From the NCBI GenBank assembly GCA_964573695.1, contig CAZNKB010000006.1:8879-72878 (forward strand): a DNA stretch of 64,000 bases. Reading direction: 5' to 3'. Shown piece after piece: positions 10,180-61,400 of the stretch (the first letter of the stretch is position 1; every line of letters starts with the position of its first letter). The position numbers and the translations under genes were made by a program. The DNA is from an uncultured Gammaproteobacteria bacterium (GTDB lineage: Bacteria > Patescibacteriota > Microgenomatia > UBA10105 > UBA927). The notes beneath the pieces are model-generated. The model made no database searches and had not been told where the DNA came from. It saw only the letters and a program-made list of their open reading frames with translations.

Positions 10180-10189
10180 AGGCAGTATT

Positions 10190-20305: not shown

Positions 20306-20396
20306 GTAATGGGGGAGTATACACTATAAGATATTCTGAAGCAAGCGTATAACGGTTATAAAACGCAAAAGGCGAGAAGATTGTCTTTGGATACTG

Positions 20397-21304: not shown

Positions 21305-21674
21305 GATAAGCGACGGAGTATAACAGAAAAAGTTATAGGATACAAATATAGAGAAAGGATGTATAATGTGTTGTATGTCAGGATATCTTTTTCGTGAACG
21401 AGGGGCCTACATTGTGGGCGTTACGTTTGAGTCGATGAAGCGAGGAAAAGATGCTCGCGACCGATTGCGTGCGCGAGTGTCCTTGCTCACAGAACATTCT
21501 TTCGAAATTGCAGATGCAGCAGATTTGGGAACCGTATGGTTTGGAACGGAAGGGTGGTCTCCCGAACAATTATTACAGGCCGCTCGTAAACGATTTCGTG
21601 CAGCCAGCGGAAAAAGGTGATAACCTCGAGGTCGATGCGTGATAGGAAGTAAGTGGTGATGTGACCCACTCGTT

Positions 21675-35021: not shown

Positions 35022-35083
35022 GATACCTCTGTGTAAATACTTTTTTCAAGATATTTTTTTTGAATTCCATATCTGATATACTC

Positions 35084-43641: not shown

Positions 43642-44736
43642 ATGTTCAGTTTCACGAAGCGTCTCGGCATTGATCTCGGTACGGCAAATTCCGTAGTTTG
43701 GCTGGCTGGCGTGGGAGTGGTACTTAACGAGCCGACGGTAGTAGCTGTAACCACCGATGACGGTAGAGTGGTGGCAGTAGGCAATGAAGCGAAAGAAATG
43801 TTGGGAAGAACCCCGGGGAATATTATGGCGAGCCGGCCGATGCGGGACGGTGTGATCGCTGATTATCGGATAACGGAAGCCATGCTTTCCCATTTTATCG
43901 ATCGGGCGGTCGGTCGAAACCGTATTTTCAAACCGGAGGTAATGATCTGTGTGCCGACAGGTGCGAGCCAGGTGGAGCGCCGCGCGGTGATAGACGCCAC
44001 GCTTGCCGCAGGAGCCAGGGTCGCGTATCTTATCGAGGAGCCGTTGGCGGCCGCTATAGGAGCCAAAGTTCCCATTGCACAGGCCAGTGGCCATATGATT
44101 GTGGATATGGGGGGAGGGAGTACGGAGGCCGCAGTAATTTCCTTGGGCGGCGTTGTGGTACACAAAAGCGCTCGGGTGGCAGGGAACAAAATAGACGAAG
44201 CGATCGCAAACTACGTCAAAAAAAACTTCAACCTCATTATCGGTGAACGTATGGCCGAAACAATCAAAATAACCATTGGGGATGCGATTGCCGGTACGGC
44301 CATTCCAGCAAAGGCGGGAATCAGTTCTGGTAGCGATACCAAAAACCAAGATCGGTCTCCGGCGAAACCAGGGGTAACAAAAGAGGGAGAAGCTATGGAG
44401 GTTCGTGGCCGCGATGCGATCACTGGTTTGCCCCGCATTATCAATCTCACCCGCGCGGAGGTGACACAGGCGATAACACCTGTGCTTCATTTGGTCATCA
44501 CCGCGATAAAAAGCGTATTGGAGGAAACGCCGCCGGAGCTTGCTGCAGATATAATCGATAAAGGTATTGTCATGGCAGGCGGGACGAGTTTGCTTAGGAA
44601 CTTCGATAAGTTGGTGACCAAAATGACTGGCGTACCTGCTCATATTGCCGATGAACCGCTTCTGTGTGTCGTGCGGGGAACAGGTGTGGCTATAGAGAAT
44701 ATTGAATTATACAAGCGAAGCATCAGCAAAAAGTAA
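43642..44736 (+). CDS. mreB: rod shape-determining actin homolog MreB (with a ~30 aa low-complexity insertion)
   Basis: 364 aa. GIDLGTANS, actin-fold phosphate-1/2 motifs, DMGGGSTE, MAGGTSLLRNFDKL. Insertion AGTAIPAKAGISSGSDTKNQDRSPAKPGVTKEGEAM. Confidence 0.85.
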   Translation: MFSFTKRLGIDLGTANSVVWLAGVGVVLNEPTVVAVTTDDGRVVAVGNEAKEMLGRTPGNIMASRPMRDGVIADYRITEAMLSHFIDRAVGRNRIFKPEVMICVPTGASQVERRAVIDATLAAGARVAYLIEEPLAAAIGAKVPIAQASGHMIVDMGGGSTEAAVISLGGVVVHKSARVAGNKIDEAIANYVKKNFNLIIGERMAETIKITIGDAIAGTAIPAKAGISSGSDTKNQDRSPAKPGVTKEGEAMEVRGRDAITGLPRIINLTRAEVTQAITPVLHLVITAIKSVLEETPPELAADIIDKGIVMAGGTSLLRNFDKLVTKMTGVPAHIADEPLLCVVRGTGVAIENIELYKRSISKK

Positions 44737-45032: not shown

Positions 45033-45866
45033 ATGAGTCTTAGTAGTCAAAAAATACTTCAAGTTAAGATAACCACAGCTTCAAAAAAATTAATCCTAGA
45101 GGAAATAAAAAAGTACCTCATTCAATCCGTTCGCGTCTCATCATCCGGTACTTCCCGTAAGGTCCGACCATTTATTATTACGACGCCGAATCCGGAACAA
45201 ATCGTTTTTGCTCAGTCGCATAGTGATTTTCGAAATATACTTAATCGGGCCGATGTGGCGCTCCCTGACGGAATCGGATTGCTTCTTGCCAGCAGGATTT
45301 TATCCGGCAAAGTACTGGGAGCTCCGGGTGTGCAAATTTCCCAGCGGGTGGCCGGTGTTGATTTTATGAATGAACTCGTCACCTTGGCAGAGCTTCAGCG
45401 CGTCAGTATAGGACTTATAGGCGGTTACAACGGTTTAGCAGTCAAAGCGTTAGATTGCTTACAGGCATCACACCCGAAGCTATCGGGGTGGGCCATGGAC
45501 GGGCCGGAGTTAGTCGGAGAAGATTTTGACTCCATACAATGGCCGGGTGATCAATACTGGGTAAATCTGGCAAAAAAAATTCGGGAAACCCATACGCATA
45601 TCGTCTTTGTGGGGCTTGGCGCCCCAAAGCAGGAATATGTGACTATGCGATTGAGTGATAAAATGAATTTTCCGGTCATATATATGAGTGTCGGAGGATC
45701 GTTTGATGTGATAGCTGGTAGACTTCGTCGTGCACCGATTTGGATTAGATCGATAGGGTTTGAGTGGTTTTGGCGATTACTTCAGGAGCCATGGCGTTGG
45801 CGCCGACAGCGAGCCTTGCTGCAATTTATGGTATTGATGTTAAAAAACATCGCCCTGTCGCGTTAA
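45033..45866 (+). CDS. WecB/TagA/CpsF family glycosyltransferase (GT26)
   Basis: 277 aa. LPDGIGLLLAS, VGLGAPKQEYV, GGSFDVIAGRLRRAPIWIRSIGFEWFWRLLQEPWRWRRQ. Confidence 0.8.
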   Translation: MSLSSQKILQVKITTASKKLILEEIKKYLIQSVRVSSSGTSRKVRPFIITTPNPEQIVFAQSHSDFRNILNRADVALPDGIGLLLASRILSGKVLGAPGVQISQRVAGVDFMNELVTLAELQRVSIGLIGGYNGLAVKALDCLQASHPKLSGWAMDGPELVGEDFDSIQWPGDQYWVNLAKKIRETHTHIVFVGLGAPKQEYVTMRLSDKMNFPVIYMSVGGSFDVIAGRLRRAPIWIRSIGFEWFWRLLQEPWRWRRQRALLQFMVLMLKNIALSR

Positions 45867-45905
45867 ATAGATTCAAAGCCAGGCTTTGATGTAGAGGGGA
45901 GGGGT

Positions 45906-46142
45906 ATGGCTCAAGATATAGAAATTGAAGTACAAATGAGAATAAAGAGGAGGATACGCGTTCCCTTGATTGCGGGATTTGCACTGGTGCAACAAGCCGG
46001 ACGCATGAGTCGTATATTTGATATCGGAAAAGCAAGAGCGATAGATATGTATGAAGCAGGAGTAGCGCTCTTGGGGCGTAATCAGGAAGTGCTTGTAGAA
46101 GATGCCAAGGGACGAAAGGTGTTTCGACGACGCAATCGTTAG
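45906..46142 (+). CDS. hypothetical small protein
   Basis: 78 aa ORF. Confidence 0.25.
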   Translation: MAQDIEIEVQMRIKRRIRVPLIAGFALVQQAGRMSRIFDIGKARAIDMYEAGVALLGRNQEVLVEDAKGRKVFRRRNR

Positions 46143-46233
46143 CGTTAAGCACAAATTATGATATGTATTTCAGATAGCTGATATTGTTTGTTATATAAAC
46201 GTCTTTAGATTTTTTTAGTATTACGATGCTTCT

Positions 46234-46506
46234 ATGAGGAGAGGGAAGTGTCTGCCCCAAGGTTTGGACGAGGGCGCCTGCGGTGCCGGAACCCCTGTTA
46301 TAGAACGACCTGCCCGGGTTGTGTTGTCTTGGGGCAGAACATATGAAACGCAGAATTATCGGGTTGACGTGCTGCAAGCATGGTTGGATCGAGGCGATTT
46401 CGCTGATCACGAGCGTGTTTTCGTATGGAAGCATGTCGGGATACTTTGGTGGCGACGAAAAATCGCCCACAGTGTGAAGCCAAGAGATATCCTCGGTATA
46501 AAATGA
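46234..46506 (+). CDS. hypothetical small protein
   Basis: 90 aa ORF. Confidence 0.25.
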   Translation: MRRGKCLPQGLDEGACGAGTPVIERPARVVLSWGRTYETQNYRVDVLQAWLDRGDFADHERVFVWKHVGILWWRRKIAHSVKPRDILGIK

Positions 46507-46640
46507 GATTTTAAGTTATCTATTGATATAGATAATAGTATTTTGCACTAAGAAGATGCCAAAAAATATTTTTACCATATCTTTCTATAATATAAAGATA
46601 TCTTTCGGCCGGGCTCTCGCATAGCTTAGATGTTATCTTC

Positions 46641-46982
46641 GTGATATACTCCCTCCCTAATGGAGTTTGTATGAAAAAGACGTGTGAAAACGCGGGCTGC
46701 ATATTAAATCAGCTTGGAAACTGTTTTGGGGCGAGATTTCTAGGCGAGCAACCGAGCGTGTTGCAAAGTGAGGAGTATTGGCGGGCCAAAGCAGAAGAAG
46801 AAAATAGTCGCAGACGGCAGGCAAATATGGCTCCCGCACAGCCTGATTTTCTTCGGCGTGAGCACATCAAAGATACCCGATATACCTGGCAGGTCGCCAA
46901 GCGCGAACATTGCCGCAGAAGCGATCGTGCATTGGGCAGCGCATTGAGGGCCTACGATGTGATAGCTGCCCCATTTTTATGA
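46641..46982 (+). CDS. hypothetical protein
   Basis: 113 aa ORF. Confidence 0.3.
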   Translation: MIYSLPNGVCMKKTCENAGCILNQLGNCFGARFLGEQPSVLQSEEYWRAKAEEENSRRRQANMAPAQPDFLRREHIKDTRYTWQVAKREHCRRSDRALGSALRAYDVIAAPFL

Positions 46983-46992
46983 CAATTATCCT

Positions 46993-47304
46993 ATGACTAC
47001 AAGAGTCGCCTGTCACCAGGGGAAGGAACGGAGTGTCGCCGTAGCAGGATTATACAGGTCTAAAGGATATGACTATGTATCGTTTTACGGTGGGATAGAG
47101 CGGATGATTACGTTAAGCGTAAGAGAGCTCAGGAGAGAAGTGACGCGAGACGATGACGTCATATTAATCTGTGAACCGTGGAGAGAGTGGGATCCGCAAC
47201 TGAAAGCCGTGGAACAGGCAGAAGAACTTCTCAAGCGCGCCGGCAGACGATATAGTCGATCAACGACAACAGAATTGATGAAGGCTTTGATAGGAAGACG
47301 ATAA
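46993..47304 (+). CDS. hypothetical protein
   Basis: 103 aa ORF, 10 nt after the previous one. Confidence 0.3.
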   Translation: MTTRVACHQGKERSVAVAGLYRSKGYDYVSFYGGIERMITLSVRELRREVTRDDDVILICEPWREWDPQLKAVEQAEELLKRAGRRYSRSTTTELMKALIGRR

Positions 47305-47404
47305 TTTTGTTATAGATGCGTTGATATCATCGAAGCCGTTAGTCACCGCTCAATCCTGTCGAATGGTACTGCGTATCTGAGCGAACGTGAAGTGGTTCGT
47401 GACG

Positions 47405-47650
47405 TTATTTACGAAGTGGTCGTCTTCGGGAGCCTGTGGGCGGACCGAATGCTTCATGTGTTGATTTCGTATACTCGCGCGTTCCATGATCCACCGCAGC
47501 TCCCACGACGCTTTCCATGAGTTTTCGTAATCGGGATCCTGCCCAATTTGTCAGCGCTCGGAATTTTTCCCGAGTAAGAAATCGTTTAGGTTGAGTTGTT
47601 TCGGCTGTCATATAGTCGCGTATGGTATGTTTTTTCCGTGTCAAATGCAA
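47405..47650 (-). CDS. hypothetical protein
   Basis: 81 aa ORF. Confidence 0.3.
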   Translation of the reverse strand: MHLTRKKHTIRDYMTAETTQPKRFLTREKFRALTNWAGSRLRKLMESVVGAAVDHGTREYTKSTHEAFGPPTGSRRRPLRK

Positions 47651-47736
47651 TATGTCTGTAAATCATGCTCCGCAATTGATCTTCGATTCATGGTATAATA
47701 CCAGTCATATCGAGGCAAACGTAAGAAACGTCCGTC

Positions 47737-48948
47737 ATGAGAATTCTATATCTTCAAACGTTTCCGTTTTGGGGAAGCGGCTCAGGCACATACGCACGAC
47801 ATTTGGCGAGCGAAGTGGGTCGTCGTCATAAAGTCGCCATTCTTGCTCCCGACACACGTCCCATTGAGCGAGCTAAGTTGTATTCTGTGGCACTTCCATT
47901 CCCGGTAGCCTTTACCGGGCATCCTGAGTGGCCCGATTGCAAGCTTTATACACAACTTAATAATGACGAAATATACCGGGTTTACAAGGTGCTGCTTGAG
48001 TCTGCGATAGCAGCAGTAGTCGATTTCCGGCCCGATATCATTCATGTTCACCACGCCTTCCCGTTTTCTTGGGCTGCGGCGTTTATCAAGGATTTTTATA
48101 ACATTCCGTACGTAGTGACGATTCATGGATCCGAACTGCCGTCCATGGAAAAAGAGAAACGGTTTATTAGGGCTACATATTATGCGATGTATCGTGCTAA
48201 ACAGATATTTCCGAATTCCGGATATACGAGAGACTGGTTTTTGAGAATTTTCAAGGGAGATTTTCATGAAAAAAGCCGAGTAATCCCCGGGGGTGTGAAC
48301 GTCGACAAATTCATCTATAGCGAGTCGGGCGCGAAATCCGTCGATAAGGAACTCAAGCTACATGGTAAGCCGGTCGTGGTATTTGCCGGAAAACTCACAA
48401 AATACAAAGGAGTAGAGTTCCTCGTCGGGGCGGCAAAAAATATCCATGGGGAAGTCGTCATATTGGGGGACGGTCCGGAAAAACAGCGCTTACAGGAAAA
48501 AGCGAGACAACTGAATTTAACAAATATTCATTGGGTGGGTCATTTGGGTGCAGGGATCAAAAAGCTCGTACCGTATTATTCCCGGGCGGACGTATTTGTA
48601 GCTCCCAGCGTGTGGGACGAGCCGTTGGGGCTCGTCATATTGGAAGCTATGGCATGTCAGACACCAGTTGTGGTTACCAGAAAAGGCGGAATTCCGCTTG
48701 CCGTCAAAGAAGGATATAACGGGCTGTTTGTCCGTGCGCGAAATAGTGCTGAGATCGTCGAGAAGGTCAATAAACTATTAGATAACGCGTCTTTTCGGTA
48801 TAAAATGGGCCAGAACGCACGTAAATCGGTAGAAGAAAAATTCTCCTGGGAAACGATTGCGCATAAATTCGAACTTTCGTATGCCAAATATGCCAAAAAA
48901 TCCAACGGATCGGCGTTTTCCGTGCAAGCACCGGCGGCAAAGAGCTGA
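47737..48948 (+). CDS. GT4 family glycosyltransferase
   Basis: 403 aa. MRILYLQTFPFWGSGSGTYARHL. C-terminal GHLGAGIKKLVPYYSRADVFVAPSVWDEPLGLVILEAMACQTPVVVTRKGG (E-x7-E). Confidence 0.8.
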   Translation: MRILYLQTFPFWGSGSGTYARHLASEVGRRHKVAILAPDTRPIERAKLYSVALPFPVAFTGHPEWPDCKLYTQLNNDEIYRVYKVLLESAIAAVVDFRPDIIHVHHAFPFSWAAAFIKDFYNIPYVVTIHGSELPSMEKEKRFIRATYYAMYRAKQIFPNSGYTRDWFLRIFKGDFHEKSRVIPGGVNVDKFIYSESGAKSVDKELKLHGKPVVVFAGKLTKYKGVEFLVGAAKNIHGEVVILGDGPEKQRLQEKARQLNLTNIHWVGHLGAGIKKLVPYYSRADVFVAPSVWDEPLGLVILEAMACQTPVVVTRKGGIPLAVKEGYNGLFVRARNSAEIVEKVNKLLDNASFRYKMGQNARKSVEEKFSWETIAHKFELSYAKYAKKSNGSAFSVQAPAAKS

Positions 48949-49013
48949 CGTAATATATCGTACATCCAAATACCACACAGACCGTTACAATAAGATTTCT
49001 CTATTATATTACT

Positions 49014-49247
49014 ATGCGTAAAACAACAACCGAAGTTACCGGGTATACCATGTATTATTCTGAGCCAGGTGAACTCGACAAGATTATGGCCCAGGGTCAC
49101 GAGTATGATATTTGTAAAATTGGCTGGACCGGTCCCAACACCGGGGCAAGGCGTGTCGCATTTACATCCGATGAATCAGGAAATCGGAGATTCGAGCGTA
49201 AAATGCGCGCACTCAAATTTGAAATTCAGGACGTATCCGCAGTCTGA
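49014..49247 (+). CDS. hypothetical small protein
   Basis: 77 aa ORF between GT4 genes. Confidence 0.3.
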   Translation: MRKTTTEVTGYTMYYSEPGELDKIMAQGHEYDICKIGWTGPNTGARRVAFTSDESGNRRFERKMRALKFEIQDVSAV

Positions 49248-49294
49248 TTTGTCTTTCAGGTGACTTCTTTTTCCGTTTGACATACACTGGTTGT

Positions 49295-50365
49295 ATGAGA
49301 ATCCTCATATTAGGTTCCGTTGCATTGCCTGTTCCTCCTCCCATGCAGGGAGGTACTGAGCGTATAGCCTATTGGCAGGCTTTGGGGCTTGCCAAGCGCG
49401 GACACCAAGTGACGCTTATCGCAGCGAAGGGATCGAAAAAGGATCCGTCCTACACGCTGGTTGAAATTGGCGGCGGCGATACGGTAACAGGGTCTTCGAC
49501 TCAGTCCACAGTTAACTTTACAGAAGGCTCGCGAGCCATGCGCAAGGAATTGGTGTACATGGCAAACGTTTCCCAGTGGATGTTGGATCACGGGAAAGAA
49601 TTTGATGTAATCCTCAATAACATGCGCGGCGGCGAATCCATGCTGCTTCCTATCGCCAAAAAATTAGGCGTGCAGTTTGCAACCGTGATGCATTTGCCGA
49701 TATTTGCGGAATTAGCCGATGAATTCCGTATATATAACACGCCCGTTATCACTATTAGCAATGCTCAGAAAGAAGGTTTTGACGGACTCAATTACATTGG
49801 CACTGTTTATAACGCTACCGATGTAGAAGAGTTACCATTCCAGGAAAAAGCCGGAGAGTATCTCCTCATGATGGGCAGTATCGCGCCGCATAAAAATCAA
49901 AAAGACGGAATTCTTGCTGCAAAAGCGGTGGGTCAAAAAATTATTCTGGCCGGTAAAATCGGGAATCAAACCTATTGGGAGAGTGAGGTGGCTCCGCTTG
50001 TGGACGGAACAACGGTGATACACAAAGGCGAAATGGGGATAGCGGAAAAGGCAGCTTTACTGGGTAACGCCCAAGCCTTGTTATTCCCGATTGTCTGGCC
50101 GGAACCGTTCGGACTCGTCATGATAGAGGCATTGGCGACGGGCACACCTGTGGTCGCGTACGGTAACGGCGCTGTTTCGGAGGTTGTTACGGACGGAAAA
50201 ACGGGCTTTATCGTCGATCAGTCACAAGGTGTTGGGGGGCTGGCCGTCGCTACCAAACGAGTTGGAGAAATCAATCGGGCCGATTGTCGTGCCGATGTGG
50301 AGAAGAGATTCACGATAGAAAAAATGATAGAAAGCCTCGAAGTAGCACTCCGGACCGTTGCGTAG
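49295..50365 (+). CDS. GT4 family glycosyltransferase (paralog 1 of 3)
   Basis: Start set to ATG 49295 (MRILILGSVALPVPPPMQGGTERI), which matches the paralog N-termini. The track start at 49277 is a TTG. C-terminal FPIVWPEPFGLVMIEALATGTPVVAYGNGAVSEVV. Confidence 0.8.
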   Translation: MRILILGSVALPVPPPMQGGTERIAYWQALGLAKRGHQVTLIAAKGSKKDPSYTLVEIGGGDTVTGSSTQSTVNFTEGSRAMRKELVYMANVSQWMLDHGKEFDVILNNMRGGESMLLPIAKKLGVQFATVMHLPIFAELADEFRIYNTPVITISNAQKEGFDGLNYIGTVYNATDVEELPFQEKAGEYLLMMGSIAPHKNQKDGILAAKAVGQKIILAGKIGNQTYWESEVAPLVDGTTVIHKGEMGIAEKAALLGNAQALLFPIVWPEPFGLVMIEALATGTPVVAYGNGAVSEVVTDGKTGFIVDQSQGVGGLAVATKRVGEINRADCRADVEKRFTIEKMIESLEVALRTVA

Positions 50366-50441
50366 GTGATTTTTGGTTTTCCTTGTTTGTCCCCTTTGTG
50401 GTACGATCGGGGCTCCGTTTAGAAGTGGGTATACGTAAGCT

Positions 50442-50660
50442 ATGCACGAACGAAAGCGTCTTCATTTGCTGACTGGCCTCATGCGCAGAGTGGAAGAGTT
50501 TGAGGAAGAAGCTGTGGACATTGAGGTATTTCTTGGTGGAGAGTGGAAAGCCCGGGTTATGGTGCTGCCGCGTTGGCAGATAGAGATTATGCAGCGACGC
50601 GGCGTATATCACATGACTGATGATGATAAAGAAGAAATTCAGGTCCGGTTAGCCTCGTAG
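50442..50660 (+). CDS. hypothetical small protein
   Basis: 72 aa ORF. Confidence 0.3.
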   Translation: MHERKRLHLLTGLMRRVEEFEEEAVDIEVFLGGEWKARVMVLPRWQIEIMQRRGVYHMTDDDKEEIQVRLAS

Positions 50661-50711
50661 TTAAGGTAAGCGCATTCATCAGTATCCAAATCTACATGGT
50701 ATGATGAATAT

Positions 50712-51752
50712 ATGAAGATTGCAGTTCTTGCCCCTCCGTATTTACCAGTGCCTCCGCCACTTTACGGCGGAACAGAAAAAATAGTCTCGCTTTTGACGGA
50801 AGGATTAGTCGACCAGGGCCATGATGTGACGTTGTTTGCAAGCGGAGATAGTGTCACCCACGCGAAGCTATCGAGTATGTTTCCCACCGCATTAGGTAAC
50901 AGCGGGCTTACCAAAGGAAATACGGATAAGCCATTGGCGCATTACCACGCGTGTTATGCTAGAGCTGACGAATTCGATGTCATTCACAGCCACGGCCAGT
51001 ATCTGAGTTTGCCGGAAGCTTCAACGATCAAAACACCTGTTGTATTTACTTGGCATGGATCATTTTATCCGGGAGAAACAACGGAGGAAAAGCGGGAGAT
51101 ACTCAAAAAATACAAACATCTTAATTATATTTCCATTTCCAACAATCAACGTGCTGGTTTAGCTGATCTTCATTATGTAGCGACGGTATATAACGCACTG
51201 GATATAGCGGAGTATCCGTTTATTCCTGCCCCGGGCGATTATCTCCTCTGGATCGGTAGGGTGAATCCCAAAAAAGGTGCTCTGGATGCCATACAGGCCG
51301 CGAAACGGCTGGGTATACGGCTGGAAATGGCCGCTGCTATCGATCCCATTGATCACCAGTATTTTGAAGAAACGATTAAACCACATATTGACGGCGAACG
51401 TGTCGTATTCCACGGAGAGATAGGACATAGTGCTCTCGTCGAATTATATGGAGGAGCGCTTGCCACGCTATATCCTATTTCCTGGCATGAACCGTTTGGA
51501 CTCGTTATGGCCGAGAGCATGTCGTGCGGGACTCCTGTGATTGCCTATAACGTGGGGTCGGTACCGGAAATAGTACGAGATAGATTGACAGGATTTGTTA
51601 TAGATCCGTCTTTGGGAGTTGAGGGACTTGTAGATGCGGTCAAAAAGCTAGATACCATAGATCGATCTCGCTGCAGGAAACACACCGAGGCATATTTTCA
51701 TAAAGACAGAATGGTCAGAGATTATGAAGCGGTCTATGAGGCGCTGCTATGA
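50712..51752 (+). CDS. GT4 family glycosyltransferase (paralog 2)
   Basis: 346 aa. MKIAVLAPPYLPVPPPLYGGTEKI. YPISWHEPFGLVMAESMSCGTPVIAYNVGSVPEIV. Confidence 0.8.
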   Translation: MKIAVLAPPYLPVPPPLYGGTEKIVSLLTEGLVDQGHDVTLFASGDSVTHAKLSSMFPTALGNSGLTKGNTDKPLAHYHACYARADEFDVIHSHGQYLSLPEASTIKTPVVFTWHGSFYPGETTEEKREILKKYKHLNYISISNNQRAGLADLHYVATVYNALDIAEYPFIPAPGDYLLWIGRVNPKKGALDAIQAAKRLGIRLEMAAAIDPIDHQYFEETIKPHIDGERVVFHGEIGHSALVELYGGALATLYPISWHEPFGLVMAESMSCGTPVIAYNVGSVPEIVRDRLTGFVIDPSLGVEGLVDAVKKLDTIDRSRCRKHTEAYFHKDRMVRDYEAVYEALL

Positions 51753-52867
51753 GAATCGGACTGTATATTTCACCTTCGCACCGAGTTCCTCCTGACGAAA
51801 AAAGCATCCTGGCTCCTTGGGTGTTGGTCCAACAACTGGCAGACGGCTTGGTCGCAAAGCATCACGATGTGACACTTTTTGCTGCCAAGGGAAGTAACAC
51901 ATCCGCCAAACTTATACACGGAGGGATAGACGCAACGATAAATCGGATTTCGGAGTATGGAGATCATGATGACTACCGGGCGTATGTCATTGCCCAGGAG
52001 CTTGCACTTATGCGCGAGGTCATCGTTTGGGCAAAAGAAGGAAAGCTTGATGTGGTGCATATACACCAACCGGTCGAGCGACTGTATCCTGCTCTTCTGG
52101 CTATGCCGGCTAAGGTGCCTGTTGTCATAACGTTTCATGATCCCATTAATCCCGAGAGGTTTGCAGCCCTCGAAAAGCTTATGGAATTGGGGAATATTCA
52201 TCTGGTTTCACTCTCCAAAGCCCAACAGCATCAGGTGCCATTCCCATTTGCCGGCGTTGTGCCAAACGGCGTAGATACGTCTCGATTTGTGCCCGACGGA
52301 CAGTTGCCGCTTCGTAAGCGCCCGCTACTTATCACCGGACGCATCGTGCCTCAAAAAGGATTCACGGATGCGATAGAAGCTGCTCGCGCCGTTCACATGC
52401 GCCTGATGATTGTCGGGCAGGAATACGAGCAACAGAAAGTGTCCCGCGAATATTTTGAGGGAGAGGTGAAGCCGGCAATAGACGGCAAAAACGTACTTTG
52501 GGAATCCGTCGTAAAACAGGAGCATCTTGTGGGGCATTATCAGACAGCAGCAGCGCTTCTTTTCCCCATACGCTGGGAGGAGCCATTCGGACTGGTTATG
52601 ATAGAGGCTATGGCAACCGGTACGCCCGTGATTGCCTATAATCGGGGATCCGTGCCGGAGATTATCATTGACGGCAAAACCGGGTTTATCGTTGACCCGA
52701 AAGAAGGAGTAAAGGGATTGGTCCAAGCCATTAAACGGATCGATGAGATTGATCGAATGGCCTGCCGTCGTCATGTCGAGCGTTATTTTTCTCTTGCCAC
52801 GATGATCGCGGGTTACGAAGCCGTGTACAAAAAAGTCAGTCGTACGGCAAAACTTCCTGTCAAGTAG
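51749..52867 (+). CDS. GT4 family glycosyltransferase (paralog 3)
   Basis: 372 aa. ATGA overlap with the upstream gene. FPIRWEEPFGLVMIEAMATGTPVIAYNRGSVPEII. Confidence 0.8.
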   Translation: MRIGLYISPSHRVPPDEKSILAPWVLVQQLADGLVAKHHDVTLFAAKGSNTSAKLIHGGIDATINRISEYGDHDDYRAYVIAQELALMREVIVWAKEGKLDVVHIHQPVERLYPALLAMPAKVPVVITFHDPINPERFAALEKLMELGNIHLVSLSKAQQHQVPFPFAGVVPNGVDTSRFVPDGQLPLRKRPLLITGRIVPQKGFTDAIEAARAVHMRLMIVGQEYEQQKVSREYFEGEVKPAIDGKNVLWESVVKQEHLVGHYQTAAALLFPIRWEEPFGLVMIEAMATGTPVIAYNRGSVPEIIIDGKTGFIVDPKEGVKGLVQAIKRIDEIDRMACRRHVERYFSLATMIAGYEAVYKKVSRTAKLPVK

Positions 52868-52907
52868 AGTACATACACGCTTCTATTCTCCGTGCTAAGA
52901 TAAATTC

Positions 52908-54338
52908 ATGCGGGTTTTATTTGTCACCAGTGAGATAGCCACGCTTTATAAGCGGGGGGGGTTGGCTGATGTAAGTTACGCATTGCCGGTATCTCTTTCC
53001 CAATTAGGGGTAAATGTCTCTGTTGCCATGCCATATTATGCCAGCGTAACGACGAAAGGTGTGACCTGTGTCGGGCAATTGGCGATTGATTATGATAGGC
53101 GGCGCGAATTGGTATTTGTGTTTCGGACGCTGCTACCACATTCTCATGTGCGTGCATATCTGTTCCGGCATCCGCTGCTTAATGACTATGATGATGCGCA
53201 CATTGCCGATCGGTTTGCCTTTTTTTCCAAGGCAGTAGCCCAGCTCTCGTTGTATTCGGAAGGTGTACTTGGGGGCCCGTATGACATTATTCACTGCAAC
53301 GACTGGCATACGGCATTGATCCCGATGCTTATCGGAGAGCAGAGTAAGGTAGGATATCGGGAACGGGAAACGATACAATCCCGAAGAGTCAAAACGATCC
53401 TCACCGTGCACAATCTGCTGTATCAGGGGGAGACGGGATTTTCGATTACGCTCAAGCTCGGGTTTCCTAAAACGATATTTCATCCCTTTATGACGCCGCT
53501 TGGTCGGGCAGTGCGACTACTCACCGAAGGATTTGAGTATGCCGATAAAGTGACAACCGTTTCCCCGACGTATGCCAAAGAAATAGCCCGCGGGGTCCAC
53601 GGCAAGCGCGTCGTCGAGGTGTTTAAACGCAGAAAAGACCGAATGATAGGGATACTCAATGGTCTTGATACCAAATTGTGGGATCCAAAAACGGATCCGT
53701 CGCTCCCTGTGCATTATGAAACAAGCTCAGTGGTGCAAGCCAAGCGCGCGATAAAAGAGCAACTACAGAAAGCCCTCCGTCTTCCTGTTTCCCCCGTGCC
53801 TTTGTTCGGATTTGTCGGCCGGTTAGAAAAACGTCAAAAAGGACTTGATCTTATTGCCCGAGTCATTGCAAAGCTTAAGGGAGAAGACTACCAGTTGGTG
53901 CTTTTGGGCACCGGGCAAAAAAAGCTTGTGACTCTGTTTGAAAAGCTTGCCAGTGAGAATGAACATATAGCTTTTGTCCATACGTTTGATGAACGGCTCG
54001 CGCGGCGGATCTATGCCGGAAGCGATGTTATGCTGGTTCCCTCGAAGTTTGAGCCGTGTGGCCTGACACAAATGATTGCCATGCGCTATGGAACATTGCC
54101 CTTGGTGCGTAACACCGGTGGGCTAGCTGATACGGTCAGCGACGGGGAGACCGGTTTCGTATTCGGACCATATACCAGCACCGCACTTGCTGCCAAGATG
54201 AAAGAAGCTATCTTACTTTATCGGGATAATCCGACCAAATTCACTCGAATGATGAAGCACGTTATGCGGGTGGATTTTTCCTGGGCCCACCAGGTTAAGG
54301 AATATATGCGGCTTTATCAGAAGCTTATTTCTTCCTAG
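52908..54338 (+). CDS. glgA: glycogen/starch synthase (GT5)
   Basis: 476 aa. MRVLFVTSEIATLYKRGGLADVSYALP (KxGGL), CNDWHTALIP, GILNGLDTKLWDP, LVPSKFEPCGLTQMIAMRYGTLPLVRNTGGLADTV. Confidence 0.85.
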   Translation: MRVLFVTSEIATLYKRGGLADVSYALPVSLSQLGVNVSVAMPYYASVTTKGVTCVGQLAIDYDRRRELVFVFRTLLPHSHVRAYLFRHPLLNDYDDAHIADRFAFFSKAVAQLSLYSEGVLGGPYDIIHCNDWHTALIPMLIGEQSKVGYRERETIQSRRVKTILTVHNLLYQGETGFSITLKLGFPKTIFHPFMTPLGRAVRLLTEGFEYADKVTTVSPTYAKEIARGVHGKRVVEVFKRRKDRMIGILNGLDTKLWDPKTDPSLPVHYETSSVVQAKRAIKEQLQKALRLPVSPVPLFGFVGRLEKRQKGLDLIARVIAKLKGEDYQLVLLGTGQKKLVTLFEKLASENEHIAFVHTFDERLARRIYAGSDVMLVPSKFEPCGLTQMIAMRYGTLPLVRNTGGLADTVSDGETGFVFGPYTSTALAAKMKEAILLYRDNPTKFTRMMKHVMRVDFSWAHQVKEYMRLYQKLISS

Positions 54339-54457: not shown

Positions 54458-55456
54458 TTATGCTAATGTGTAATACACGCTCCGCCCCCTGCCGCTCGAG
54501 AGAAGGAATCCGAAGGAAACGAGTTTCGTAAGGTCGCGACTTGCGGTAATTTGTGAGATTCGGAATCGTTTTTGGACCTCGCGATTCGTGACTTTTGCTG
54601 ACGGTACATCAAGCAGCATAAGGATATGTTTTTGGCGCTCATTGAGTGACGCAAACGACTGTGTGTGCGTCGCTGTGCGGCCGGCTCGTTCCCGTATATC
54701 CTGAAGCAGGGTCATATATGCCTCGTGTGTTGCCCGGACAAAATATTCTAGCCAAACGGTCATCTGGCCAAGTGAACCAATACTTGTAAGCGCATGGGTA
54801 TAGGCATTGGGATCCCGGGTAAGGGCATATTCCAGATTGAGCATCCCTCGGCAGTCATACCCGTATTTGGCCATGATAAGGCTGCTTGTGAGGAGCGCCA
54901 TGCGCCGGTGCGACTGTTTCTGAATATCAGTATGTGCCGTCGCTGCGTGTGCTACGCCTGCGATAAGAAGCGGATGATCACCGGATTGCGTCTCTATATA
55001 TGCCACGAGTCGCTTAAGGTCGATAGCACTTTCGCGAATTGAGCGGGATATGCGGGAAAACGGAAGCGAAAGCGCGACGCTCATGAGTATTTCCAGGCTA
55101 GCAAGGGTGACAGGTTTGGAGCTCCCGGTCCATTCGTTGCGGATATACGTTAAAGCCTGGCGGTAAAGAAGGGCTTCCTGTTCCATGGGGTGGGGTCTTT
55201 TGGGCGTATTGGATAGCAATCTGTTGAGCTCGACGATCGTCATGGGGATATCGGCTAGCCGAAGGGCAGTCAGGATTCTTCCGGTCGTTGCCAGGTAGCG
55301 AAGTTCAATTTCTCTCCGGGGGGATAAAGGCCAAGAAAGGAGATGGCTGCGATACAGGTCTATATCTTTCGTTTGATTTTGAAGAAACGGCGAAAACGTG
55401 TATGCAATTGGTATTCCCATACAGCTCAAGGAGTAGTTACATTTGGATCGTATCAC
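54458..55456 (-). CDS. Fic-domain-like protein with a degenerate active-site motif and a C-terminal winged HTH
   Basis: 332 aa. GDHPLLIAGVAHAATAH...HRRMALLTSSLIMAKYGY sits where HPFx[DE]GNGR...RLL...GY is expected. C-terminal REVQKRFRISQITASRDLTKLVSFGFL. Assignment is tentative. Confidence 0.4.
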   Translation of the reverse strand: MIRSKCNYSLSCMGIPIAYTFSPFLQNQTKDIDLYRSHLLSWPLSPRREIELRYLATTGRILTALRLADIPMTIVELNRLLSNTPKRPHPMEQEALLYRQALTYIRNEWTGSSKPVTLASLEILMSVALSLPFSRISRSIRESAIDLKRLVAYIETQSGDHPLLIAGVAHAATAHTDIQKQSHRRMALLTSSLIMAKYGYDCRGMLNLEYALTRDPNAYTHALTSIGSLGQMTVWLEYFVRATHEAYMTLLQDIRERAGRTATHTQSFASLNERQKHILMLLDVPSAKVTNREVQKRFRISQITASRDLTKLVSFGFLLSSGRGRSVYYTLA

Positions 55457-55704
55457 GAGGTCTAGAAAAAATCAAAGTATATCTAAGCTTGTTAGTACGG
55501 GAAATATGCGTTTATGTGATAAGAGAACGATAAGATTATGATCTGGTTAGTCCGGTGCTTGACAAGGTGTGAAAAGCAGGCGTACAGTAGATATATAACT
55601 TACACATATTAGTAATAACTGTGAAAGTTATTGGTAAGCACTTGTAAAAACTTGGTTTAATTTCGCATTGGTACGGGCTAAAGGGTTTGGGAGCCTGCCT
55701 GGAC

Positions 55705-57636
55705 ATGCCCAAAACATATACTGTCAAAGAAGTCGCTGATATACTCGGGTTTAGCACGAATAGCATCTACACGTTCCTAAAAGAGAAGCGGATAAAAGGC
55801 GTGCGCGTCGGCAAAGGCCGGTTCCGTATCCCCGAAGAGGAATTAGCACGCATACTCCATATCAGTAAGAAGTCAGCCGCTACAACACCCGCCCCCGTGG
55901 AAGCCCCAGAAGGTGTATCTGCCCCAGTACTCAAGCCCGAAGGCGATGCTGCATTTATTACGTCTCAGAGCTCCTATGAGTCGGGGAAGGCAAATGATGT
56001 CCTTGTACCCAATATTTTTGATTGGTTTGTCGGCTTGGCGTCTCTGATTGCCGGAGTGGGATTATTTTTGTTTAATTCCTCGACCAATTCGCTTGAGGTT
56101 ACACGAACTACTTTGGTTTTTCCTGTTATTCGCGTGGTACTGATCGCCTGCGGATTTGGCGTCATACTAAGCAGTATTTTTGCACAAGGAAGGAATTGGC
56201 ATAGGGTTTTCCTCTATGCGCTTTCCATGCTGGGGTTTGTAAATGCATTCGGACTTGCCCGAAACGGGGATATGGAGGGAGCGTTTTTGTATGGCGGGTT
56301 AGCACTTATCATCGGCGTGACGAATGTCGTTCCCTTTGGGGGAATTGTCTCGATCGGATTGTATGTGACGCTTGTGGCGTTGTTGTATCCGGTGACTATA
56401 GTGTTTTTTCCTAGTGACACACACGTTCAGTTACTCTCTGGGGCACTTCACTTGTCGGCCCCGCTTATGGTCGTGGGGTCATTGATTGTCGGCATTGTGT
56501 TGCCGATTCTTTTTTGGGTGGGATATGCGAGCAATCGCAGGCTTTTCATCGCGACGACTGCTTTGTTGGGACTTGCGGATATGGTTGTCGCTGTTTGGTA
56601 TGCGCACCTGCAACTATGGAGCAGATCGTTTTTTATCATCGTACTCGGATACTTCACAGTGTTCTTACCGCATTGGTGGCCTTTGCAGCAAAAAATTGCA
56701 AGGCGCTACAAGCTTGTGCTGCACGGGTTGTTTTTGGTGATCGGAAGCATATTGGTCATAGCCGTGCTTGTTGTGTATTTGTTGCAGCAAAACCTTTGGA
56801 ACTCGCGGGAAAGTGAATTCGCGAATAAAATAAAAGTAGCGCAGTTGTCGCTAAACAGGGCGGTTGAGTCCGTGCAGGGTTCGCTCACTGTTGCGGCACA
56901 AAATCGTGAATTTACCGATACGTTGGTGAAGAAGGATCTGGAAAAACTGACCGTGTTTGCCAAAATTGTGTATGAGAGTAACCCCAATATCCGCCGGCTC
57001 GTATTTTTGGACAAAGAGGGTGATGGCGTCGCGCTTTATCCATACGGAACATTTGACCAGCCGAATTTATCTTACCGCGATTATTTTACCCAGGCCAAAT
57101 CAACAGGTCGCCCGTATGTCTCAAACGTATTTCAGTCCCAGGCAGATCATGCCGGTCGGTATGTGGTGGTTGTGGCAGTGCCGTTTCAGGATGCCAAGGG
57201 AGATTTTGCCGGAGTCATAACCGGCTCGATTGATTTGCGTCGCGTGGGACTCCAGCTCGCACAGATAGCCGCTGATACTCGCGGAGAGTATTTTGTCGTG
57301 ACCGATGCGAAAGGGGTTATTCTCATTCACCCGGATGAAAAACTTATCGGGACGGACGTCTCTTCCGGTGATCCGATGCTGCGGGGGTTATCGGGGGCTC
57401 CCGGGGTAAACCACGGAATTACTATTGACGCTTCTTACGGTATGGTCGCCTATGCTGATGTGCCGATACTTCGGTGGGTTATAAGCCTGCGGGTGCCGGC
57501 GGAAAACGTATTTGAACTCACCTATGTGAGCATCTGGTATGTCTATGGAACGGTGGTCGTTCTTCTGCTTATTGGTATCTATATTTTTTCCTACGCCAGA
57601 CTAAGAATGGGACAATCGAAAGAAGGCGGGACCTGA
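55705..57636 (+). CDS. Membrane one-component regulator: N-terminal excisionase/MerR-type HTH, polytopic membrane domain, periplasmic Cache-like sensor domain, C-terminal TM
   Basis: ATG at 55705 is preceded by a GGGAG SD; the track start at 55687 is a [53 protein letters not shown]. ~8 TM helices. A ~260 aa extracytoplasmic domain with Cache-like features ([20 protein letters not shown]...VVVVAVPF). Terminal TM. Its stop overlaps the next start (TGATGA). Confidence 0.65.
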
Positions 57637-58403
57637 TGAACAAAACTTCCATAAGACCAGAGAAACAACAGAAATCCGCAGTCAGCGGATTTCTCGCTGT
57701 AAAGGGTTTTGGGCCATTCGGCCGATTGTCATTAATCGGCGGCTTTTCGCCGATCATGCCGTTTCTTTTTGCTGTCGTTATCGGAGGATTGGGATTTGTG
57801 TTATTTGAAGCGTTTCGTTTGAGTAGTACGGGTTTGGTAAAAAAGAGTCAGGATCAGATAGCATCACCAATCATTAACCGCTTGACGGAGAAGGTGATTT
57901 CGGAAAGCACATGGATACGTCCGTTTATCGTATTGGTCCAGCGAGCCGATGGATCGTTTGCGTATGCCTATGTAGAAAACGCCGTAGTAAAAAATGATGC
58001 GTTTGTCGGAGATGTGACCATTCGCTATACCAATGGTGAGCGCGGGATCGTGCATGACGAGAACGGATACTTCCGGTTTTTCCTGACAAAGCAGGGTAGC
58101 CAGGAATCGGTGAGAATTCTGGTGCCGATCATTACGGGTATCAGATTGCCCGACGATACAATCATCCTGGCGCAATTTTCTGACGGTACAATTATAGACG
58201 AACAGTTTGTGGGGCCGTTTTCGGCCCTCACTGTGCTTGAGAAATTGCAAATTACGGGAACCCGCTCGGCTCAGGGCGGATACATCACCATAACAGTTAA
58301 CCCGACGCTCAAGTCTGTTGATACAGGTGTGGCGCTCATAGAGCGTGAGATTTTGAAAATGGCCCTTTCTGCAATGGGTCACACAGACAGCGTGTTGGGG
58401 GTA
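57636..58403 (+). CDS. membrane-anchored hypothetical protein (N-terminal TM, ~200 aa extracytoplasmic domain)
   Basis: 255 aa ORF, verified codon by codon in frame 0 ([60 protein letters not shown]...). Not in the supplied track. Ends at TAA 58401-58403, in the same frame as the collagen-like ORF. Confidence 0.5.
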
Positions 58404-58472
58404 ACGACAGATACGCCGGGGATCGATAAACCTCTTAACTTGCCGATATTATCATCGAGCATTGGTACGAAT

Positions 58473-61400
58473 ATGCTGATCCAACGGTTTGAAGGAGAAG
58501 GAGTGGTTCGTATTGTTCCACAAAGTAACAATATAGATCAATCTATAACAAACATACAAAATCTGAATCCTTCGTTTGATACCACGACAATCAACCAGTC
58601 ATCACAGCTTGCGTCCAATCAGGGATTTTATCCTTCTTTATATAGTGGGGGCGCAGGAACAACCGGTGTGACCGGAGCGACAGGCGCTACTGGCATACAG
58701 GGAGCAAAAGGGGATTCCGGAGCAAAAGGAGCACAAGGATCCAATGGAGTCGACGGACCAACGGGAGCGACGGGAACTGGTGAGTTGGGGCCGATTGGTC
58801 CGACAGGAGCAACAGGGTCAGGCGGTGGAGGTGGTGGCGGAGGTGGCGCAGACGGACCAACGGGAGCAACAGGGGCGACCGGAGGAATTGGTGCAAGCGG
58901 ACCAACAGGGTCTACAGGAGCAACTGGTGCCAATGGCCCCACAGGATCGACCGGAGTCACCGGAACACAAGGTGCTTCCGGCCCGACCGGTTCAACTGGT
59001 GCCACAGGTGGAGTCGGGGCCTCCGGTCCAACGGGTTCGACAGGAGCGACTGGCAGTGTAGGAACAACTGGTCCTACTGGTTCGACAGGAGCGACGGGAT
59101 CACAGGGTGCATCAGGTCCCACTGGTTCCACAGGTTCCACAGGTGGAGTTGGTGCATCAGGTCCAACGGGAAGTACGGGATCCACTGGCTTGCTTGGCGC
59201 ATCAGGCCCGACTGGTTCTACTGGAGTACAAGGCTCTTCCGGTCCCACTGGATCAACCGGTGCGACCGGTTCGCAAGGTGCTTCCGGTCCGACAGGGTCT
59301 ACAGGAGCAACGGGTGGAGTTGGTGCAAGCGGCCCGACGGGAAGTACTGGGGCAACAGGAGGCGTTGGATCGAGTGGTCCGACTGGTGCTACCGGATCAA
59401 CGGGAGCAACTGGTTTACAGGGATCTTCAGGTCCCACCGGATCTACAGGTACAACAGGTCAAGGTGGTCCGACTGGTGCCACAGGTCCTACCGGCTCTCA
59501 AGGGGGAGCCGAAGGCGCACCAGGTCCTACTGGCTCAACCGGAGCAACTGGGAGTGTAGGTGCATCAGGCCCGACGGGTAGCACCGGTGCCACTGGAGGA
59601 ATTGGAGCCAGCGGCCCGACAGGATCTACAGGTGCAACCGGAACGCTGGGAGCAAGTGGACCAACGGGAAGTACGGGATCCACTGGCTCACAAGGAGCAA
59701 GTGGTCCTACCGGCCCAACAGGAAGCACAGGATCTACGGGAGGCGATGGTGCCTCGGGCCCAACCGGTACAACCGGATCTACCGGTACTCAAGGAACAAG
59801 CGGTCCGACGGGTTCAACAGGTGCAACAGGTTCTCAAGGTGCATCAGGTCCTACCGGAGCAACTGGCGCCACGGGTACCAATGGCCCAACAGGATCAACA
59901 GGCGCTACTGGTGGAGTTGGCGCAAGTGGACCTACAGGCGCAACAGGAGCAACTGGAACACAAGGAAATCCAGGAATTGACGGAGCAAATGGTCCTACAG
60001 GTTCTACAGGAGCAACTGGTGCAAATGGAGCAAATGGTCCTACAGGTTCTACAGGAGCAACTGGTGCAAATGGAGCAAGCGGACCGACAGGTTCAACAGG
60101 TGCGACTGGAACTCAAGGGGCAAGCGGTCCAACGGGTTCAACTGGCACCACTGGAACCAATGGTCCAACGGGTTCGACAGGAGCAACAGGAGGCGTTGGT
60201 GCATCAGGCCCGACGGGAAGTACTGGGGCAACAGGAGTGCAAGGAGCTTCGGGTCCGACAGGAAGTACCGGAGCTACAGGTGGAGTCGGAGCCAGTGGCC
60301 CGACAGGATCTACCGGCGCAACTGGTTCACAGGGGTCTTCCGGCCCAACCGGAAGTACCGGAGCTACAGGTGGAGTCGGAGCCAGTGGCCCGACAGGATC
60401 AACGGGAGCTACAGGTTCAGTAGGGCAACAAGGTGCTTCAGGTCCGACTGGTTCTACTGGATCCACAGGAACAAATGGAGCATCCGGTCCGACCGGATCA
60501 ACGGGAGCAACCGGCGTAAATGGAGCGAGCGGACCCACTGGTTCAACGGGAGCTACTGGGTCTCAAGGATCTTCTGGTCCAACAGGATCAACAGGAGCTA
60601 CTGGTGGAGTTGGAGCCAGTGGCCCGACCGGATCAACCGGATCAACAGGTACTCAAGGGGGTGTTGGCGCATCAGGTCCAACGGGAAGTACAGGGGTAAC
60701 GGGAAGTAACGGTCCAACTGGTTCTACGGGAGCGACCGGAAATGCAGGAGAAAATGGTCCGACAGGTAGTACGGGAGCAACTGGTGGCATCGGTGCATCA
60801 GGCCCAACTGGCTCAACCGGCGCGACTGGAATACAAGGAGCTAGTGGCCCAACTGGAAGTACGGGTGCTACAGGATTTCAAGGAGCGAGTGGGCCTACCG
60901 GATCTACTGGCGCTACAGGTGAAGTTGGTACGTCAGGCCCGACTGGTTCAACTGGCTCTACCGGCGCAAATGGACCTACTGGTTCTACTGGGGCAACAGG
61001 TTCCCAGGGAGTAAGTGGGCCTACGGGCTCCACTGGTTCTACCGGAGGAGTTGGTGCTTCTGGTCCGACTGGTTCTACTGGTGCTACGGGAACGCAAGGT
61101 GCCTCCGGACCCACAGGAAGCACCGGGGCTACCGGAAATGCAGGAGAAAATGGTCCGACCGGGAGTACGGGAGGAACTGGAGCGGTTGGCGCCAGTGGTC
61201 CCACAGGCTCTACCGGGGCTACTGGTTCTGTTGGAGCGAGTGGTCCAACAGGAAGTACCGGATCCACTGGGGTTCAGGGAGCATCCGGTCCTACCGGTTC
61301 CACTGGGGCAACGGGAATTCAGGGAGCGAGTGGTCCGACCGGGAGTACGGGAGCAACAGGAGTTAATGGTGCATCAGGACCAACCGGATCCACAGGAGCA

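Follow-up and report, generated by a model that had tools for sequence, protein, structure and literature searches.

A conserved cluster of TeGSS-like glycosyltransferase genes and glgA in Patescibacteria may encode a cytoplasmic alpha-glucoside or alpha-glucan module

Here we describe a cluster of six plus-strand glycosyltransferase genes, at positions 45033-54338 of a 64,000-nucleotide stretch of DNA (the window) from contig CAZNKB010000006.1 of an uncultured bacterium that GTDB places in the Patescibacteriota (assembly GCA_964573695.1). The reading that we favour, at somewhat less than even confidence, is that five of the encoded enzymes, which we call G1, A, B, C and GlgA, constitute an ancient, vertically inherited, operon-like cytoplasmic module for making an alpha-glucoside or alpha-glucan. 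It draws on the match of A, B and C to the cyanobacterial enzyme TeGSS, the genes that accompany this family elsewhere, the structures closest to G1, the kept linkage of the genes, the lack of hydrophobic segments and of exporter genes, and a −10 box belonging to G1 itself. Pfam and NCBIfam profile scores, judged against curated cut-offs, confirmed the gene content that an earlier sequence-only reading had listed (GT26, GT4, three paralogous GT4 and glgA):

45033-45866, plus strand: WecG/TagA-family GT26 glycosyltransferase, here WecG (PF03808, 150 bits against a cut-off of 27; TIGR00696, 114 bits against 69)
45867-47736: variable WecG-G1 spacer of 1.87 kb, with small non-conserved open reading frames (ORFs) only
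47737-48948, plus strand: G1, a GT4 glycosyltransferase (Pfam GT4 domains)
49295-50365, plus strand: paralog A, a GT4 of the TeGSS family with a GSIAPHKN motif
50712-51752, plus strand: paralog B, the GT4 closest to TeGSS
51749-52867, plus strand: paralog C, a GT4 of the TeGSS family without the Tyr-Gly-Gly loop
52908-54338, plus strand: GlgA, a GT5 glycogen/starch synthase of the ADP-glucose type (TIGR02095)

TeGSS, the tll1591 product of Thermosynechococcus, is an alpha-1,2-glucosyltransferase that uses sucrose as acceptor and requires Tyr18 and Arg179 for normal activity, the mutants at these positions being nearly inactive (PMC9909042). It is the best solved structure for all three paralogs: B matches it over its full length (7fg9/8x3q; 321 bits, 48% identity), and A and C each reach 158 bits, at 34% and 35% identity. 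The Protein Data Bank (PDB) entry 8x3q is described as TeGSS 'with alpha-glucan 4sugar', and the products of this nearest characterised enzyme are alpha-1,2-linked glucose oligomers. The next-best characterised matches of A, B and C are AviGT4 and the tetrahydrobiopterin glucosyltransferase BGluT, whose acceptor, tetrahydrobiopterin, is a small soluble molecule. AviGT4 takes part in the assembly of the oligosaccharide antibiotic avilamycin.

We mapped the TeGSS residues onto an alignment of the paralogs and onto 360 database homologs. B keeps Tyr18, Arg179, Lys184 and the EX7E glutamates, with Tyr replacing Trp10. A has Gln18 in place of the catalytic Tyr18 and Ser179 in place of Arg179, within its GSIAPHKN motif; across its clade the motif reads G[STA]xxxHKN where others have GRxxxxKG, position 179 being Ser, Thr or Ala. 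Among the top 120 homologs of A, Gln18 is found in 113 and Ser or Thr at 179 in 115. C retains Arg179 and Lys184 and has lost the Tyr-Gly-Gly loop, with VPPDEKSILAPW in its place. Active-site residues thus do differ among the paralogs, where the sequence-only reading had asked about the donor-binding residues. At the rim of the acceptor site, 5 of 11 residues in B are identical to TeGSS, 3 of 11 in A and 4 of 11 in C, with 10 of 11 in the Nostoc ortholog. The Pfam scores are in keeping with membership of GT4, a family of retaining GT-B enzymes: those of G1, B and C exceed the cut-off for both domains, all four GT4s carry EX7E, and A passes for the Glycos_transf_1 C-terminal domain (70.7 bits) and falls short for the N-terminal domain (23.9 bits, under the 28.5 cut-off).

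From these alignments, B is a member of the TeGSS family that is probably not sucrose-specific, and A and C appear as sub-families without characterised members, clade A having been seen so far only in Patescibacteria. Because clade A has replaced both the catalytic Tyr and the Arg that is canonical in GT4s (Gln18; Ser, Thr or Ala at 179; 'HKN'), its members may use a different donor or may be non-catalytic partners. The clade shows that a GT4 lacking the canonical Arg for phosphate binding can be conserved over a very long span.

The three paralogs are indeed related, and have been separate for long. Pairwise alignment gave 35% identity for A and B (E 3e-63), 37% for B and C (1e-65) and 35% for A and C (7e-57), so the genes are not unrelated; against G1, each of them has merely 23-27% identity (E 1e-9 to 1e-20). 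We recovered related loci holding close relatives of the cluster by exact-protein look-ups, and refer to them, as to the loci of the wider family, by L numbers. The best matches there are positional orthologs (A to A 49-75%, B to B 56-71%, C to C 40-69% and G1 to G1 55-78% identity), and in a neighbour-joining tree with 100 bootstraps A, B and C form separate clades, each with 100% support. Clade A also takes in genes from Saccharibacteria and Parcubacteria (L003_3, L024_3). Given the 35-37% identity between paralogs, the ortholog-specific best matches and the presence of clade A across Patescibacteria classes, the duplications are ancient and predate the split of these classes; the earlier claim of recent tandem duplication does not survive.

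The two motifs on which that claim had leaned fared unevenly. The PVPPP..GGTE N-terminus is common to A (LPVPPPMQGGTE) and B (LPVPPPLYGGTE) only; C begins with HRVPPDEKSILAP (also given as RVPPDEKSILAP) and has no GG-T-E loop. The C-terminal motif EPFGLVMIEAxATGTPVIAY is present in A, B and C, but it is the general GT4 EX7E region, which G1 carries as well (EPLGLVILEAMACQTPVV), and is therefore no evidence for close paralogy. We place the start of A at ATG 49295 and not at TTG 49277 of the program-made ORF list, because an identical 356-aa NCBI protein and the ortholog starts (M[KR][IV]LILGS) agree on the former. Nor is there support for an island in the sense of horizontal transfer: the GC content of the cluster (0.465-0.498) is like that of the flanks (0.47-0.52) and its gene order is kept across the lineage, and on these two grounds we rejected acquisition as a foreign block.

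That gene order reads PEGA-domain protein (minus strand), MreB, WecG, variable spacer, G1, A, B, C and GlgA in five other genomes, in which B is 56-71% identical to the window protein. C is missing from one of the five, L090, and L091 and L092 hold further variants of the cluster. WecG lies upstream of G1 in L083, L085, L087, L089, L090 and L092, and GlgA follows the TeGSS-like genes in seven Microgenomates loci (those six and L091). The window stems from a Gottesmanbacteria-like genome of the Microgenomates; where the named homologs of the cluster proteins carry a lineage, it is Gottesmanbacteria, Levybacteria, Curtissbacteria or 'Patescibacteria group'. In the window, the 4-nt ATGA overlap of B and C (ctgctATGAgaatc; the ATG at 51749, the TGA ending at 51752) is real and compatible with the translational coupling that had been proposed for this pair, and like overlaps occur in relatives: between C and GlgA in L085 and L089, between A and B in L090, and along B, G1, A and B in L024.

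GlgA itself is readily assigned to its family. It scores 458 bits on TIGR02095 (cut-off 328) and 172 bits on PF08323, among solved structures E. coli glycogen synthase matches it best (232 bits), and it has the motifs KRGGL (KxGGL) and EPCGL; it falls below every species-level equivalog cut-off. There is neither a glgC nor a glgB in the window. Between the clade of the window and that of L089 and L090, GlgA is 35-39% identical, and G1, A and B are 49-59% identical; the L089 (12195-13625) and L090 (11053-12432) proteins share 54%. This indicates that GlgA either evolves fast or has been exchanged, in the same position, for a GlgA of another lineage.

This difference also bears on a plainer explanation, that the cluster has no common pathway at all: an ordinary GlgA, a wall-related WecG and GT4 enzymes with unrelated jobs would be neighbours through slow change of gene order. 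The greater divergence of GlgA than of its neighbours fits that idea, as do the conservation of the unrelated MreB and PEGA-protein genes in the same block and the tolerance of unrelated insertions between members (a sortase, small ORFs, a 23S_rRNA_IVP gene). We nevertheless regard it as rather unlikely: the adjacency of TeGSS-like genes and GlgA persists in all seven loci, though the genes past GlgA differ completely; the C-GlgA overlaps join the two reading frames; and G1, A and B occur together, with start/stop overlaps, in three Patescibacteria classes.

G1 reaches the curated cut-off of no family. Its top NCBIfam scores are for glgA_Coryne (GlgM, TIGR02149; 143 bits against 302) and BshA (134 against 274), and it also falls short for MshA (99 against 462) and SPS (TIGR02472; 57 against 576); the cyanobacterial Tll1590-type neighbours of TeGSS themselves reach just 115-152 bits on the SPS model. 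An AlphaFold model of G1 (pLDDT 85) gave GlgM (6tvp), MshA (3c4q), BshA (6d9t) and TeSPS (6kih) as top Foldseek matches, at E 1e-19 to 3e-21 and 18-25% identity (25% for GlgM, the top neighbour), a fold search that cannot separate GlgM, MshA, BshA and SPS. All four of these enzymes act on small soluble acceptors, and we therefore propose, from the modelled structure, that G1 may be a primer synthase of the small-soluble-acceptor type. Within Microgenomates G1 is 65-94% identical, and orthologs at 49-50% identity stand inside the TeGSS-like gene sets of Saccharibacteria L003 and Parcubacteria L024.

The wider family points in the same direction. Scanning one genome per species, we found at least 80 loci with B-like genes (41-48% identity), and we analysed the neighbours at 86 loci. 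The hosts among the matches listed are cyanobacteria, Actinomycetes, Chloroflexota, Nitrospira, Methylomirabilota, Planctomycetes, Acidobacteria, Proteobacteria and other Patescibacteria. Disaccharide synthases recur next to the TeGSS-family genes: a Tll1590-type GT4 in 7 cyanobacterial loci (among the 86 listed), TreT in Chloroflexota L005, and a GT20 OtsA-like enzyme in Roizmanbacteria (L009:6214-15899), where a hexokinase-like gene, a trehalase gene (minus strand), a TeGSS-like GT4, the OtsA-like gene, an APH-like kinase gene and two more TeGSS-like GT4s follow one another. The last locus is a candidate for glucosyl-trehalose (selaginose-type) metabolism. In Parcubacteria L024 the order is MscS, B, G1, A, a second B, kinase, C-like gene and hydrolase, and there overlaps with adjacent genes are found for the kinase and C-like genes as well.

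Hydrolases like that of L024 are a recurrent partner. A GH176-type hydrolase lies at most 10 kb from a TeGSS-family gene in 26 of the 86 listed loci, spread over more than eight phyla, and about 20 of these pairs are directly adjacent; L024 and L059 represent Patescibacteria, and L017, L019 (10001-13270), L023, L030, L045, L055, L064, L065, L067, L069, L072 and L082 are among the others. The hydrolases are mostly ~720-780 aa long, shorter in the two Patescibacteria loci, and match the GH176 enzyme TgAMY (7vma) with 339 bits at L019 and 207 bits at L024. Family GH176 includes a strict alpha-1,2-glucosidase, found in Arthrobacter humicola (A8F5), that degrades kojioligosaccharides and selaginose, and TgAMY conserves all kojibiose-binding residues; a polymer mainly of alpha-1,2-glucose linkage has not been found in nature (bioRxiv 10.64898/2026.07.01.735942). 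Glycosyltransferase neighbours go unmentioned in that preprint. The gene neighbourhoods suggest that TeGSS-family GT4s and GH176 hydrolases form a make-and-break pair for alpha-1,2-glucosides, and the pairing suggests a natural substrate for these newly characterised hydrolases. This GT4-GH176 association is the most useful by-product of the work.

Taken with the likeness to TeGSS, the disaccharide-synthase and GH176 neighbours suggest that the family as a whole builds alpha-1,2-glucosides, with non-reducing disaccharides or alpha-glucans as the base, and that this synthesis is paired with hydrolysis of the products. The picture approaches orthology to glycogen- or trehalose-type sugar metabolism alone, an outcome that the sequence-only reading had set against its own proposal, without strictly amounting to it.

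As regards acceptor, linkage per paralog, order of steps and physiological role, we infer the following. Five soluble cytoplasmic glycosyltransferases would use nucleotide-glucose to build an oligosaccharide or glucan based on glucose. G1 would first glycosylate a small soluble acceptor to give a primer glucoside, a role parallel to that of the Tll1590-type synthase in cyanobacteria, or of OtsA or TreT in some other genomes, beside TeGSS-family genes. B, with its intact TeGSS-like catalytic set, would then add alpha-linked glucose, probably alpha-1,2. A and C, whose donor and acceptor loops are re-modelled, might add further residues, use other intermediates or serve as non-canonical partners, and GlgA would make alpha-1,4 chains, on the primer or as ordinary glycogen. 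The product could be a carbon store, an osmoprotectant or both. None of the cluster enzymes has a hydrophobic segment (maximum KD19 ≤1.52), as a cytoplasmic location would have it.

A more specific version is speculative, and we rate it as improbable: an undescribed, lineage-wide Patescibacteria pathway in which a G1 primer synthase and three anciently diverged TeGSS-like enzymes yield an alpha-1,2 (kojio-type) glucoside or a glucan of mixed alpha-1,2 and alpha-1,4 linkage, with the GT4-GH176 pairs of many phyla representing a widespread, unrecognised alpha-1,2-glucoside cycle. Were it true, an alpha-1,2 glucoside or mixed glucan of a kind not seen in nature would exist in these cells. A literature search for this cluster in Patescibacteria returned nothing relevant.

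Several observations weigh against the proposed cytoplasmic module. Genes for GH176, OtsA, TreT, MscS and an APH-like kinase were sought in the window and none was found. G1 was considered as SPS, TreT, OtsA or GlgM and rejected for each, every model cut-off being missed. Two residues at which mutation leaves TeGSS almost inactive are missing from A, and sucrose is, judged by alignment, unlikely as the acceptor of B, which has only 5 of 11 rim residues in common with TeGSS. The assignment of TeGSS itself comes from thin-layer and high-performance liquid chromatography (TLC/HPLC) data of a single laboratory. A mutant phenotype is also known for the Nostoc homolog alr1000, nitrogen fixation only under anaerobic conditions, which is typical of envelope defects. 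Finally, WecG and G1 are tightly linked in two relatives, ~30 nt apart in L089 and with a DUF218 gene between them in L090 (gaps of ~30-60 nt); since enzymes of the WecG type use lipid-linked acceptors and the pair stands beside MreB and the PEGA protein, this favours an envelope role.

In such a role, WecG/TagA would make the linkage unit ManNAc-GlcNAc-PP-undecaprenyl, the four GT4s and the GlgA-like enzyme would extend it on the cytoplasmic face, and the chain would be exported and attached to peptidoglycan as a glucose-rich secondary wall polymer. We consider this unlikely, though far from negligible. The GT26 membership of WecG is clear, with TagA (7mpk, 115 bits) as the closest solved structure, the block PEGA-MreB-WecG-G1-A-B-(C)-GlgA is kept down to ~55% protein identity, and B has a weak full-length similarity to Agl16, an enzyme of lipid-linked glycan assembly (63 bits against 575); the alr1000 phenotype belongs here too. 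Yet neither the 64-kb window nor the 20-kb loci that we examined contain a TagO or TagO-like gene, a flippase, an ABC exporter or an LCP ligase. In Saccharibacteria and Parcubacteria the core B-G1-A-B has no WecG with it and stands beside MscS, kinase and GH176 genes, and among the close relatives of the three paralogs none that is characterised acts on a lipid-linked acceptor.

The spacer between WecG and G1 tells against the envelope polymer as well. It is 1.87 kb long here, and by tblastx and blastn only the 37 nt just upstream of G1 match the related loci; the relatives have different inserts at this place, with opposite-strand genes in L083 and L085. G1 has a −10 box of its own, the extended element TGGTATAAT at 47691-47699, 37 nt ahead of its ATG, which a manual alignment shows to be kept in L083 and L085. 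Automated promoter and terminator scans were uninformative, the number of sites being no higher than in shuffled sequence. In this genome WecG is probably a unit separate from the cluster.

Within the spacer, two adjacent small plus-strand ORFs (46641-46982 and 46993-47304; 113 and 103 aa) lie in different frames and have no Pfam match. The second starts MTTRVACHQGKERS and reads C-x5-R, as in low-molecular-weight phosphatases; the two could be a single frameshifted gene. The gaps between G1 and A and between A and B are both exactly 346 nt, and we discarded the idea that they are duplicated units, their alignment being no better than random. They are filled by small plus-strand ORFs (49014-49247, 77 aa; 50442-50660, 72 aa) that have no counterpart in the related loci; at the A-B position a sortase gene or other small genes are found in relatives.

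Two accessory genes of relatives may be noted. An endonuclease/exonuclease/phosphatase-family gene directly follows G1 at L083:6644-7348 and is absent from the window; it could encode a sugar-phosphate phosphatase for the G1 product. GalT-like genes (PF01087/DUF4931) stand directly after GlgA at L090:12436-13335 and just upstream of the B ortholog at L088:8567-9448, and may supply nucleotide-glucose where no glgC was seen.

The genes that flank the cluster in the window are the following:

43642-44736, upstream of the cluster: MreB, with a PEGA-domain protein gene also upstream, on the minus strand
54458-55456, minus strand: conserved protein with a weak MarR-like winged-helix C-terminus (AdcR 3tgn match)
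55687-57636, plus strand: HTH_17 and dCache membrane sensor (Pfam)
57636-64000, plus strand: giant collagen-like protein of more than 2100 aa that extends past the end of the window (frame translation and start mapping)

The minus-strand gene stands between the glycosyltransferase cluster and the next operon. Residues 263-324 of its product align with AdcR (3tgn; E 0.0012), there is no Pfam or NCBIfam match, and orthologs occupy the same position in L083, L085 and L087. Beyond it, the ATG of the collagen-like gene at 57636 overlaps the stop of the HTH_17-dCache gene, which is therefore the first gene of the collagen-like operon. The N-terminus of the collagen-like protein includes a hydrophobic segment, and ~1500 aa of the chain are Gly-X-Thr/Ser triplets; the program-made ORF list has only off-frame shadow ORFs in this region, and a 3186-aa gene is called there in L083.

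Repeats of this kind raise the question of protein glycosylation. The sequence-only reading had suggested a dedicated protein O-glycosylation or surface glycan pathway, from the density of glycosyltransferases beside secreted Thr/Pro-rich proteins and a collagen-like protein, and in that case the GT4s would decorate Thr and Ser of the collagen-like or other secreted Thr/Pro-rich proteins. In Bacillus, BclA-type Gly-X-Thr repeats are O-glycosylated, and GtfB is a known non-catalytic GT-B partner, which A, without its canonical catalytic residues, recalls. The close relatives L083, L085, L086 and L087 have downstream G-X-Y runs in the corresponding position. We find the idea very improbable all the same, and nothing in the analysis points specifically to it. 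The collagen-like gene begins 3.3 kb downstream of GlgA, in a separate, dCache-coupled operon past the minus-strand gene. The runs are not found in L089, L090 or L088, and no collagen-like gene is present within 10 kb in L089, L090 and L092, more distant genomes that keep the glycosyltransferase cluster, or near the cluster in L003 and L024. The SdgA protein O-glycosyltransferase model gives 21-26 bits against a cut-off of 800, the close characterised relatives, TeGSS and BGluT among them, all use small molecules or oligosaccharides, and the family-wide neighbours are sugar-metabolism genes.

Two other minus-strand loci in the window may concern the cell surface. A second glycosylation locus, at 5856-11545, has genes for a 966-aa protein with a weak GT-C (AftD-like) match (E 7e-4), a 476-aa protein without a Pfam match and a GT4 (10190-11545); as the site of action of a GT-C enzyme would be outside the membrane, glycosylation of the surface or of proteins has a better candidate here than in the GlgA-bearing cluster. 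At 18679-27617, a DUF11 protein, a sortase, a GNAT acetyltransferase and a 1980-aa protein without a Pfam match probably make up a sortase-anchored surface protein locus. Elsewhere, two adenylate-kinase-like paralogs (31704-32333 and 33699-34343, plus strand) lie 1.4 kb apart, with a nucleoside-diphosphate kinase gene at 35012-35509. Rfam and tRNA scans found nothing in the cluster and, in the window, only tRNA-Pro and tRNA-Arg at ~40.3 kb.

Patescibacteria have genomes of ~1 Mb with few biosynthetic genes, yet in many of them four to six of these glycosyltransferase genes have stayed together. Because the cluster is kept despite such small genomes, its product is probably important for storage, stress tolerance or the envelope. 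What had looked like a recently duplicated protein-glycosylation island would, on our preferred reading, be an old, vertically inherited part of sugar metabolism.

Among known systems, WecG compares with TagA, which catalyses the first committed step towards the wall teichoic acid or ECA linkage unit, as a clear GT26 that adjoins MreB, as expected for a wall-related function; it differs in missing the TarA equivalog cut-off (111 bits against 350), in having no TagO, TagB/F, TagGH or LCP gene nearby, and in that its linkage to the GT4 set is limited to Microgenomates. GlgA resembles the E. coli (2qzs) and Agrobacterium (1rzu) enzymes over its full length and in its KxGGL and EPCGL motifs, but it lies inside a GT4 array and not in a glgBXCAP-type operon. 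The GT4-GH176 pairs of other loci are matched here on the GT4 side, neither the 64-kb window nor any of the Microgenomates loci examined having a GH176 gene. With GlgM, MshA, BshA and TeSPS, G1 shares the GT-B fold, EX7E and the Lys-x4-Lys/Arg-x4-Lys phosphate-binding motif, whereas it misses all the curated cut-offs of these families. The TeGSS system differs in having one paralog where there are three here, together with a linked GlgA; in its Tyr18 and Arg179, which are Gln18 and Ser179 in A; in its YGG loop, which C is without; in its acceptor rim and dimer-interface residues, the former diverged and the latter not conserved in the paralogs; and in its neighbour, the Tll1590-type enzyme, to which G1 is merely 29-33% identical. 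Nonetheless, TeGSS and B have in common the N-terminal VPP..YGG loop, Arg179 and Lys184, and EX7E, and B, like TeGSS, adjoins a second GT4 of the MshA/SPS-like type.

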